A program made the position numbers and the translations under genes. Of a stretch of 64,000 nucleotides of DNA, positions 36,744 to 40,100 are shown in pieces (positions within the stretch are counted from its first letter, which is position 1; the number at the start of each line of letters is the position of its first letter). This DNA is from Alphaproteobacteria bacterium (GTDB lineage Bacteria; Pseudomonadota; Alphaproteobacteria; MPNO01; UBA830), in assembly GCA_964291215.2 (NCBI GenBank), contig OZ219790.1, positions 736,001 to 800,000 of the forward strand, written 5' to 3'. The notes under the pieces were generated by a model that was not told the DNA's origin, ran no database searches, and saw only the letters and a program-made list of their open reading frames with translations.

Positions 36744-37128
36744 CCCGCTCTCCTCCAGGTCCTTCCCGGCGCCGCCCGCAGCGGCCCGGCGCCACTCTGG
36801 AGACCGCCGCCCTGCCTTGCAAAGGAATCGGTTAGGGGATTTCCATCGCCCCGGACATGCGCGCCAGCCCTGCCCCGGACCGCGGACATGCCGGATGCGC
36901 GCCCCCTCGTCTGGCTGCCCGCGCGGGGCTGGGCAAGGGCGCTGCGAGGAATGCGCGTGTTTGCCATGATCGGCGAAACGTTTGCCGATGGCAGGATGTC
37001 CGGCTGCCGGGCTGTCGGGCACGGCGCGTGTTGAAACCGGCCTGCGGATGGGTTATGGATTGCACCGGCGGGTTCGCTGCGGCCGTGCGGGCGCGGCGGC
37101 GTGGAATCCGGCACGGGAGGATTAGATC

Positions 37129-40100
37129 ATGACGCGGATGCCGGGCGATGTCGGGATGCATGACCTGCGGCTCTTCGGGCGGAGCGCCTCACGCGCGCGC
37201 GAACTCGTTGTACCCCCCCCCCCCCCCCCCCTCAAGAGTCAGGGCGCGGGGCTGAGCCGGTGGGCGCCCCCGGGAGAACCGCCCGCCGCCTGAAGGCGGG
37301 ACTCGCTGCCCTCTTCCTCATCGCGCTGGCCGCCGCCCTCGCGCCGCAGGACGCGCAGGCGCAATCAGGCGCCACCCTGACCGCCACGCCGGGCAATGGA
37401 CAGGTAACGCTGAACTGGGCCTTGACGTTGGACTTTGACCTGGATCCGAATCCTTGGCGGTATCGGCAGAAGAAGGGTACGGGAAGCTACGGTAATTGGC
37501 AGAGGATTTCTGGCGCGGGGACCATTCGAACGCACACCGTGACGGGTCTGGACAACGGCAGCGAATACACCTTCCAGGTCGCTATCCACTACGACAACCC
37601 GATCCCGGGCACACCGAATATCGTCTTCATTTCCAACGCAGTCACCGCGACGCCCACGGCGGTCACCCCCGGCACGGTCAGCGTCACGGCGACTCCGAAC
37701 GACGGCTGGGTGGATATCAGCGCCTCGGTCAGCGGCCTGGGCAATCCTGTCGTGCGCTGGTCCATCCGGTGGGTCGTGGACGGTATTACCTATGGTTGGT
37801 ACACATTGGGCAGCGGTACCCCGGGAGTGACCGGTTCGATAAAACACGACGCCAACCAGCACACGGCCAGTTTCAGCCTGTCGACGACCAACGGCAAGAA
37901 GTACTCCTACCAGCTTGTGGCCCACGAATCGAACACCGGCAATCAGCATACCAACGTCATCGCCAACAGGGGCTGGGCCGAAGCCACGCCGCGGGCGGAG
38001 ACCCCGACGCTGGTCTCCACTCCGAGCCGGACCCTGAGCGTGACGTCGCCCGGCGGGACGGTGGATGCGTGCTTCAACCTTCTTTCGGTCACGACGGCCA
38101 CCTCGACCTATCTGGAGTCGCGCCCCGGCAGGACGCCCCATGCCGCGCATTCGGCGCTGTCGCACGGCACCCACGGTGTCCAGGTCTCGAGCAATATCGC
38201 CGGCGTGCGGACGGGACGCGGCCAGAACCTGTATCCCTGCGCCTCGCTGGGCGTCGGCGTCCATACTGTCCGCTGGCGCTGGAAGGGCCATGACGGCACG
38301 GCGGCGACGGAAGCGCAGACGGAGACCACCTATACCGTCGTGCAGGTTCCGGGCCAGCCGACCCTGACTGCCGCCCTGCCGGCCCCGGATCGGGTCACGC
38401 TTGCGTGGGCCAATCCGAACGACGCCAGCATCACCGGTTGGGAATACCAGTACAAGGAGGGCACCGGGAGTTACGGCGCGTGGAGGGCGGTTCCGGGTTC
38501 GACGGCGACAACCATCGGCCATGTGGTGACGGGCCTGAAGCCCGGCACGGCCTACACGTTCCGGATCCGGGCGAGGAATGCGGCCGGCGCCGGCGCGGCC
38601 TCCGGGGAGCGGAGCGCGACCACCAAGGCGTCTCCCGTGCCGGCAGCGCCGGCGGGGTTCGCGGCGTCTCCGGGCAGCACGAAGGTGTGGCTGACCTGGA
38701 CCGCCCCGGACGATGCCAGCATCACCGGCTGGGAGTATCAGCAGAAGGCGGAAACCGGGACTTACGGTTCGTGGACGGCGATTCCGGGTTCCACGGCGGC
38801 GAAGGCATACGCCGAAGTGACGGGTCTGACCAACGACACGGCCTATGCGTTCAAGCTTCGGGCGGTGAGCGATGCCGGCAACGGTACGGCGTCGGCGGAA
38901 CAGACGGCCACGCCGGGGGCTGCGGTTGCGGCGGTGCTGACGGGCGCGGCGGGCGCCAACGGCGCGCATAATCTCACCTGGACGACGACCTCCGGCGGCC
39001 CGCACAGGATCGTCATCAACGCCGATGTCATCGGCTTTTGGTACGCGTATTACCGGAACAGGGGGAGTACATCATGGCGCGGGCCGAGCCACACGGGCGG
39101 CGCCGGTACCCGGCAATGGTCAGGTTCGGGGTCGTTGCACGGCGAGGTATATGAATATTACGTCCAGCCGGTCGGGTCTCGGTTCGTCGGCGGCGGCCTC
39201 TTCAGCCTGAACGGCCCGGATTCCAATGTGATCGAGTTGACGACCAACAGGCCGGACAGGCCGGCGCTGACGTTCGCGAATGCGCCGGTGACGGTTTCGC
39301 CGGGAGCGACGGCGATGTACACGGTGAAGCTGAACGGGGCATTTGCGGGCACTCTTGCGCTCTCGAGTTCGGCGGCGGACAAGGCGAGGGTGAGTCCGTC
39401 GAGCCTGACGTTCACGGCGAGTAACTACAACGTGGCGCAGACGGTGACGGTGACCGGGGTGGCGGCGGGGACGGCGACGATCAACCATGCGTTCACGCTG
39501 ACGGGGGCCTCGACAACGTTCATCCCGGATGCGGGGACGGTATCGGTGACGGTGGGCTCGGGCGGGGGTCAGGTTCCGCCGAAGCCGGCGGGATTGACGG
39601 CGTCGGCGGGCAACGGTCAGGCGGTGCTGTCGTGGACCGACCCGAACAATATGAGCATCACCGGCTACAAGCTGCGCCACGGCAAGACGACCGAGAGGGG
39701 CAGCGCGGCGTGGACCGCGATTCCGGGTTCGGGCGCGGCCACCGTGATCCACACGGTGACGGGGCTGGACAACGATGCCGAATACAGCTTCAAGCTGCGC
39801 GCGGTGAACGCCGCCGGCGACGGTGCCGCCACCGACTGGAAGACGGCGACGCCCTCGGCGACGACGGCGAAGCCGGCGAAGCCGGTCCTCACGGCGGCGG
39901 CGGGCGACGGCTCGGTCACCCTGAGCTGGGGCGCGCAGGCGAATGTCTCGACCTGGGGTTATCAGTACAAGAGCGGGGCCGGCAGCTGGGGCGCGACCCG
40001 GACGGTCTCGGGCAGTGCGACGAGTGCCACGGTGACGGGGCTGACGAACGGGACGGCCTACACGTTCCGGCTGTTCGCCCGGCGCGGCAGCGGCGGGGCG

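Follow-up and report, generated by a model that had tools for sequence, protein, structure and literature searches.

The window, meaning the whole 64,000-nt stretch of DNA analysed here from the alphaproteobacterial genome G000, contains an intact open reading frame of 2,163 aa (37260-43751, + strand) that is preceded by a short 5′ leader carrying a long run of C. The features of this locus, and of a second leader copy upstream of it, are as follows.

35734..36321, + strand: second copy of the leader cassette in the window (Shine-Dalgarno sequence 35734-39, ATG 35748, C33 at 35844-35876)
37115-37120, + strand: Shine-Dalgarno sequence GGGAGG, 8 nt upstream of the leader ATG at 37129; purine-rich at this position in 47/47 copies
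37129..37259, + strand: 5′ leader of 28 codons, the tract and 9 codons, preceding a canonical signal peptide
37192..37201, + strand: (CG)5 dinucleotide run, likewise prone to slippage
37213..37231, + strand: poly-C tract (19 nt in the assembly; one more base would bring it into frame)
37253-37255, + strand: TGA that closes the leader frame if the tract has one base too many (0 mod 3); it ends 4 nt before GTG 37260
37260..37361, + strand: GTG and predicted Sec signal peptide with a basic n-region, hydrophobic core and AQA cleavage motif (by eye)
37291-37293, + strand: TGA reached with C19, ending a 54-aa peptide and overlapping signal-peptide codons out of frame
37362..42400, + strand: passenger built from FN3 and further Ig-like modules (PF00041, E 4.9e-57)
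42420..43751, + strand: translocator region of the autotransporter, with a terminal Trp (PF03797 match at about 42675-43280)

Between the ATG at 37129 and the poly-C tract the leader reads MTRMPGDVGMHDLRLFGRSASRARELVV, followed by exactly 19 C at 37213-37231. The Shine-Dalgarno motif, its 8-nt spacing, the ATG and the tract all lie where a preliminary description of this DNA had placed them. Translation of the leader from this ATG is likely. Among 47 scored copies of the leader from several genomes (see below), the ATG is present in every one, a stop lies ahead of the tract in only two, and the main leader length classes of 84, 90 and 96 nt differ by whole codons. Forms of the (CG)5 run that are 2 nt shorter (two letters missing at 37200) shift the leader frame in some copies. 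The n/h/c pattern of the signal peptide is clear by eye and is conserved among copies. The GTG at 37260 had been described as lacking an evident Shine-Dalgarno sequence; this stands in so far as no textbook motif is present, but GGGG lies 10-13 nt upstream and GTG was found in 47/47 copies (the search anchor permitted GTG or GTA), so that this start is not to be dismissed. Initiation at GTG alone yields a complete signal peptide, again by eye, and since the GTG is as conserved as the ATG, an “OFF” state may be leaky. Six RNA folds gave no hairpin over the GTG or the Shine-Dalgarno sequence that was better than those of shuffled sequences, and the leader as a whole is less folded than its shuffles (z +3.75). 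A promoter-spacer role for the C19 tract lacks support, because a sigma-70 promoter scan of 36300-37300 returned no sites; the tract also lies downstream of the ATG.

Frame arithmetic agrees with the earlier reading that 19 C lead to an early stop while 17 or 20 C read through. With C19 the ATG frame ends at the TGA at 37291-37293, 20 codons beyond the tract and 34 nt downstream of the GTG; at tract lengths of 2 mod 3 (11, 14, 17, 20) it continues into the signal peptide. The locus has the layout of an SSR contingency locus, in which a repeat longer than about 8 nt, here C19, is placed 28 codons past the conserved Shine-Dalgarno sequence and ATG of a predicted surface gene. Both frame states occur, C19 being out of frame and the C11 of a relative in genome G042 in frame, with 9 copies in and 38 out of frame among the 47.

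The downstream gene has the architecture given in the preliminary description, an FN3 autotransporter of about 2,200 aa. The PF00041 match lies in the passenger, and the last 463 aa match PF03797 with 38.3 bits (cut-off 26) and TIGR01414 with 23.3 bits (cut-off 16), as in a type Va beta-domain; the PF03797 match was seen on these 463 aa and was not reported when the whole protein was searched. The barrel has no sequence match in PDB, and its single-sequence structure model (pLDDT 33) is unusable. Judging from its FN3 domains, the protein is probably an adhesin with a surface-displayed passenger. Over its first 1,200 aa the passenger shares 25-66% identity with those of its paralogues in G000, the N-terminal part being divergent. 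The full-length relative in G042 (L124), which carries C11 in frame, is colinear with the window gene over 2,160 codons without stops (dS 0.087, dN/dS 0.40; about 150 synonymous and 158 non-synonymous differences), which argues that the window gene is not decaying. Comparisons of the barrel with those of the G000 paralogues gave dN/dS of 0.23-0.33. An 897-aa ankyrin-repeat protein is encoded near the locus (50186-52879, - strand).

A flank search revealed that the leader is a multi-copy cassette, a property absent from the preliminary description. There are 12 copies in G000, with runs of 9, 12, 12+T+5, 15, 16, 16, 18, 18, 19, 19, 22 and 33 C. Half of them precede intact genes, 1,280-2,163 codons long, that share their C-terminus and contain no stops; the other six head cut or interrupted genes. 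Among the latter is the C33 copy 1.4 kb upstream of the C19 copy, whose truncated gene runs into a peptidase-S24-like fragment (match below cut-off). The G000 paralogues are 87-99% identical over their last 700 aa, while their passengers share 25-79% identity. Relative to the ATG, the 11 long-tract copies comprise five that are one base long, six that are one base short and none in frame, so that all six intact genes, the window copy included, are out of frame as assembled. The twelfth copy (C9) is in frame, but an insertion splits its gene just after the tract. Eight further, diverged leader copies with C17-C31 (C1:1247506 and seven more sites) have a second run of C10-C14 about 310 nt later and no signal peptide after them; in one examined, a lipoprotein-like gene lies about 470 nt downstream.

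Outside G000, the leader recurs in seven other genomes. Among 40 relatives searched it occurs only in G036 (same order, other family), and it is absent from four genomes of G000's own genus. A species-level genome scan gave 33 hits, of which 21 are the leader (five Alphaproteobacteria, one Gammaproteobacteria and one Binatia record) and 12 are chance matches without it. The seven genomes were re-searched with the downstream flank alone, blind to the tract, which gave 45 matches; 36 of these were scored and, with the 11 copies of G000, make up the 47, the identical loci of G036 and G047 being counted once. The nine dropped were four diverged G043 copies, L105 (without signal peptide), L093 and L108 (no family ATG), L128 (cut directly behind its C19) and L125 (examined separately). 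Leader DNA is 75-100% identical across classes and phyla and its presence is patchy. Horizontal transfer of the cassette with its genes between unrelated bacteria is likely, because leaders that are nearly identical are present in other families and phyla but missing from the four same-genus genomes.

A profile-free protein search with an in-frame leader gave 30 clusters with E values no higher than 0.001. Barrel homologues numbered 344; among the 120 listed, at least about a dozen start with the in-frame leader and at least about thirty at the GTG (by eye). Database proteins with the in-frame leader among the matches listed (for example P0034, P0040, P0043, P0044, P0046, P0047) have an invariant first Met and varied next residues.

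The tract is both near-universal and hypervariable. A run of at least 8 C is present in 45 of the 47 scored copies, with lengths of 5-33 in all three frames; the copies with short or interrupted runs (L092 and L104, both scored, and L125) all head truncated genes. This differs from the one invariant in-frame length that had been named beforehand as the outcome opposing a switch, at least at the level of paralogues and relatives. By frame, 9 copies are in, 26 one base short and 12 one base long. Tested against one third, the in-frame share is low overall (9/47, p 0.024) and in G000 (0/11, p 0.012) and less so elsewhere (9/36, p 0.19), the copies being related and not independent. One-short copies outnumber one-long copies (26 vs 12, p 0.034; 20 vs 7 outside G000), again among related, non-independent copies, an excess that may reflect selection for OFF, deletion bias or under-calling. 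Two pairs differ in frame with little other change: L073 (C15, in frame) and L068 (C14) head genes that are 98-99% alike, and the near-identical L101 (C11) and L099 (C10) differ by one C and hence in frame.

Long G/C runs are a general feature of G000, which has 114 runs of at least 10, about half of them in repeated IS-like sequence and some inside transposase and recombinase frames. It also has 91 runs of at least 12, the most among 41 genomes (0-45 in the 40 relatives). Long runs can therefore arise in G000 without selection. Loss of mismatch repair was considered as their cause and rejected, the mutS and mutL frames being open. Runs of C/G number about 530 at a length of 6 nt and only 6-13 at 9 nt, beyond which the counts form a second hump; because of this hump, and because the same flanks carry a long run at 12 sites in G000, C19 is not a chance run. 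The G run at an IS end is 6 nt long in 116 of 183 copies and at least 10 in only 25, whereas almost every copy of the leader has a long run. The lengthening of G/C runs in G000 is thus a likely explanation for tracts longer than those of relatives, not for their location at this spot. An IS-end junction in the window (34017-34050) forms a perfect inverted repeat, G15-CTAG-C16, whose G run reaches 17 in other copies. Elsewhere in G000, G13 immediately precedes the ATG of what we take from its translation to be a MerR-like regulator (C2:2030576), and G20 lies within a frame presumed on the same grounds to be recombinase-like (C1:2393394).

Tract lengths were read from assemblies. The public data for G000 are four runs with assembled contigs, in which paralogues are mixed and continuity is lost at the tract; contigs of X2 and X3 span a form with 8 fewer C, its locus assignment being ambiguous among paralogues. 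JGI metagenome contigs gave no matches to the flank pattern (0 confirmed among 599 hits in the pattern scan) and thus no short-read confirmation of the tract. In coding regions of G000, runs of 6-9 are in frame in 323/348 cases, and of the two runs of at least 10 usable for such a check one is in frame and one short. The exact length of 19 could be a consensus error. The OFF state of the window copy at 19 C is therefore likely rather than certain, since lengths come from assemblies and contigs break at the tract.

Taken together, these observations are best explained by translational phase variation of the autotransporter through slipped-strand mispairing at the C run, a process established for runs of this kind; we assign this reading a probability of roughly 0.7. 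The ON/OFF locus proposed in the preliminary description is favoured by the hypervariable tract length, the existence of both frame states among alleles of one gene and the intact frames under purifying selection. Ribosomes would initiate at the ATG at 37129, and one-base slips during replication would switch each copy between one in-frame and two out-of-frame states. The in-frame state would produce a precursor of about 2,200 aa with an extended signal peptide of roughly 78 aa, the out-of-frame states junk peptides of 41-55 aa. The precursor would be exported and cleaved after AQA, so that the proline run would be discarded, and the FN3 passenger would be displayed. Long proline runs slow ribosomes. 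Neutrality of proline number in the cleaved leader is plausible, because in-frame relatives among the matches listed carry 3-9 prolines at the tract. Each paralogue would switch independently and, since tract and passenger are particular to each while the barrel is nearly identical, the subset of adhesins on display would differ between cells.

The same tract could instead act on a second start, though this seems unlikely. The GTG at 37260 would then be a start in its own right and the leader with its Shine-Dalgarno sequence and ATG an upstream ORF, the tract being a three-level dial rather than an ON/OFF switch: copies in frame would make the long precursor, copies one base long would end 4 nt before the GTG and permit re-initiation, and copies one base short would overrun the GTG and block it. 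Such a dial would fit the stops found at -4 and +34 relative to the GTG in nearly all out-of-frame copies, the -4 stop of the Binatia copy, which is kept as TAG instead of TGA, the six intact G000 genes, unbroken though out of frame, and the one-short, blocking state being commonest (26/47). Retention of the GTG in 47/47 copies also fits, but an adjacent CCG codon is almost as invariant, so this conservation may reflect recent ancestry, and among the matches listed Val is replaced by Lys in P0042 and absent from P0080 at this position. Upstream of the GTG there is only the weak GGGG, and no conserved RNA structure surrounds it, although the RNA folds as such neither support nor oppose the dial.

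Somewhat less probable again is that the genes are normally in frame, with a proline linker tolerant of whole-codon changes, and that most out-of-frame states are errors of the consensus. The observed excess of one-short copies is what under-calling of long runs would produce, and both the breaking of assembled contigs at the tract and the lack of matches in short-read metagenome contigs are compatible with this reading. Yet G000 has five one-long copies beside six one-short ones and none of 11 in frame, in relatives even runs of only 8-10 occur out of frame, whereas those of 6-9 in G000 coding regions are mostly in frame, an unrelated poly-C family in genome G025 lacks the one-short excess, and lengths of 5-33 extend far beyond error. 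The least probable account dispenses with a switch altogether, with runaway G/C-run expansion in an IS-rich genome and the frameshift as the first step of decay. The abundance of long runs in G000, many in IS-like repeats and even within transposase or recombinase frames, and the broken state of 6/12 leader copies would agree with this, and lineage-specific decay has a precedent in capC/capD of Campylobacter (PMC7168839). The tract nevertheless occupies the same place in genomes with few runs of at least 10 (G036, 6; G044, 14), and in G036 five of the six runs of at least 12 C lie in the leader or its diverged form. The six frames of 1,280-2,163 codons have no stops and dN/dS of 0.23-0.40, and mutS and mutL are open, which makes decay very improbable beside slipped-strand phase variation.

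Long C or G runs also accompany other gene families. The unrelated multi-copy family of G025 has the same Shine-Dalgarno, start and poly-C design, with frames of 8:9:5 among 22 copies (8 in frame). Most of the 23 runs of at least 12 C in that genome sit 9-12 codons past the start (L109-L112, L116, L118-L123). These ORFs resemble lasso-peptide precursors with hypervariable cores, a label that we presume from a leader motif and from the asparagine-synthase (cyclase-like) gene adjoining one cluster. Behind four autotransporter paralogues of G000 (C1:1121776, C2:37038, C2:921841, C2:2939169), a C13-C15 spacer separates TTGACT and TATTGT (16-20 nt) about 60 nt upstream of the Shine-Dalgarno sequence and ATG of a 736-745-aa Gly-Asp-repeat (RTX-like) gene, a candidate promoter-spacer switch. 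Another leader family in G000 carries G12-G24 runs (C1:33659, C1:2154016, C1:2156230, C2:2876174); a Gly-Asp-repeat protein of 689 codons shares the frame of the leader at C1:33659. Poly-G directly precedes ORFs that we take to be Cas2-like in G000 (C2:2068079, 24 nt) and G025 (L117, 13 nt). A much wider picture is possible, if doubtful: a portable 130-nt cassette of Shine-Dalgarno sequence, ATG and poly-C would be traded with modular FN3 autotransporters among Alphaproteobacteria, Gammaproteobacteria and Binatia, would act as a three-position dial (full, re-initiated, blocked) through out-of-frame stops flanking the second start, and would belong to a poly-C phasome that crosses lineages of uncultured, host-associated bacteria and in which RTX-repeat genes and libraries of lasso-peptide precursors are gated as well.

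From gene and domain content only, G000 would be placed in a marine-invertebrate (sponge-type) host. Repeat-driven surface repertoires are a textbook trait of mucosal pathogens under antibody selection; the same design in uncultured bacteria, where a genome would have up to 12 giant adhesins that switch independently, would indicate a comparable diversifying pressure (phage or innate recognition). Gene callers place most starts at the GTG and so leave the putative switch unseen, and the number of “eukaryote-like” proteins counted in a symbiont genome may exceed what one cell displays. The literature covered, mostly open-access main texts, yielded no description of the family leader or of such switches in sponge or marine symbionts; the mechanism is known from NalP, MspA and Opa, while the lineage, the dedicated leader and the cross-phylum spread were not found in print.

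Several known systems resemble parts of this arrangement. Sponge-symbiont FN3/cadherin/autotransporter proteins, for which host adhesion and transfer between co-occurring symbionts have been proposed, have a similarly mixed FN3 and autotransporter architecture; the likeness is one of architecture, and the available text of that study mentions no repeat switch (PMC6506613). Campylobacter capC/capD share a conserved signal peptide and barrel, divergent passengers, a 5′ homopolymer and many inactive alleles, but their tract is poly-G, located in the promoter (capC) or the coding sequence (capD), and their inactivation has been ascribed to lineage decay, for capC irrespective of tract length (PMC7168839). 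NalP and MspA of Neisseria meningitidis are type Va autotransporters with a poly-C tract in the coding sequence that is ON at every third length, as confirmed by immunoblot, and that varies from 6 to 15 between strains (PMC3723659). They are single-copy proteases of a human pathogen, whereas the genes described here have an FN3/Ig-like passenger, a dedicated leader before a complete signal peptide, runs of up to 33 and up to 12 copies per genome. The Neisseria Opa proteins, whose repeats lie in the leader-coding region (PMC3960869), are likewise multi-copy, with a leader repeat of their own at each locus, conserved ends and variable exposed parts (PMC3960869, PMC5953494). Opa proteins are small barrels with CTCTT pentamers and no homology to the present 130-220 kDa autotransporters, which have a mononucleotide C repeat and a cross-phylum cassette; the Pfam hits of the window protein include no Opa domain. 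By analogy, the system would work like NalP and MspA at the level of the gene and like Opa at the level of the family, while being homologous to neither the NalP/MspA passengers nor Opa.
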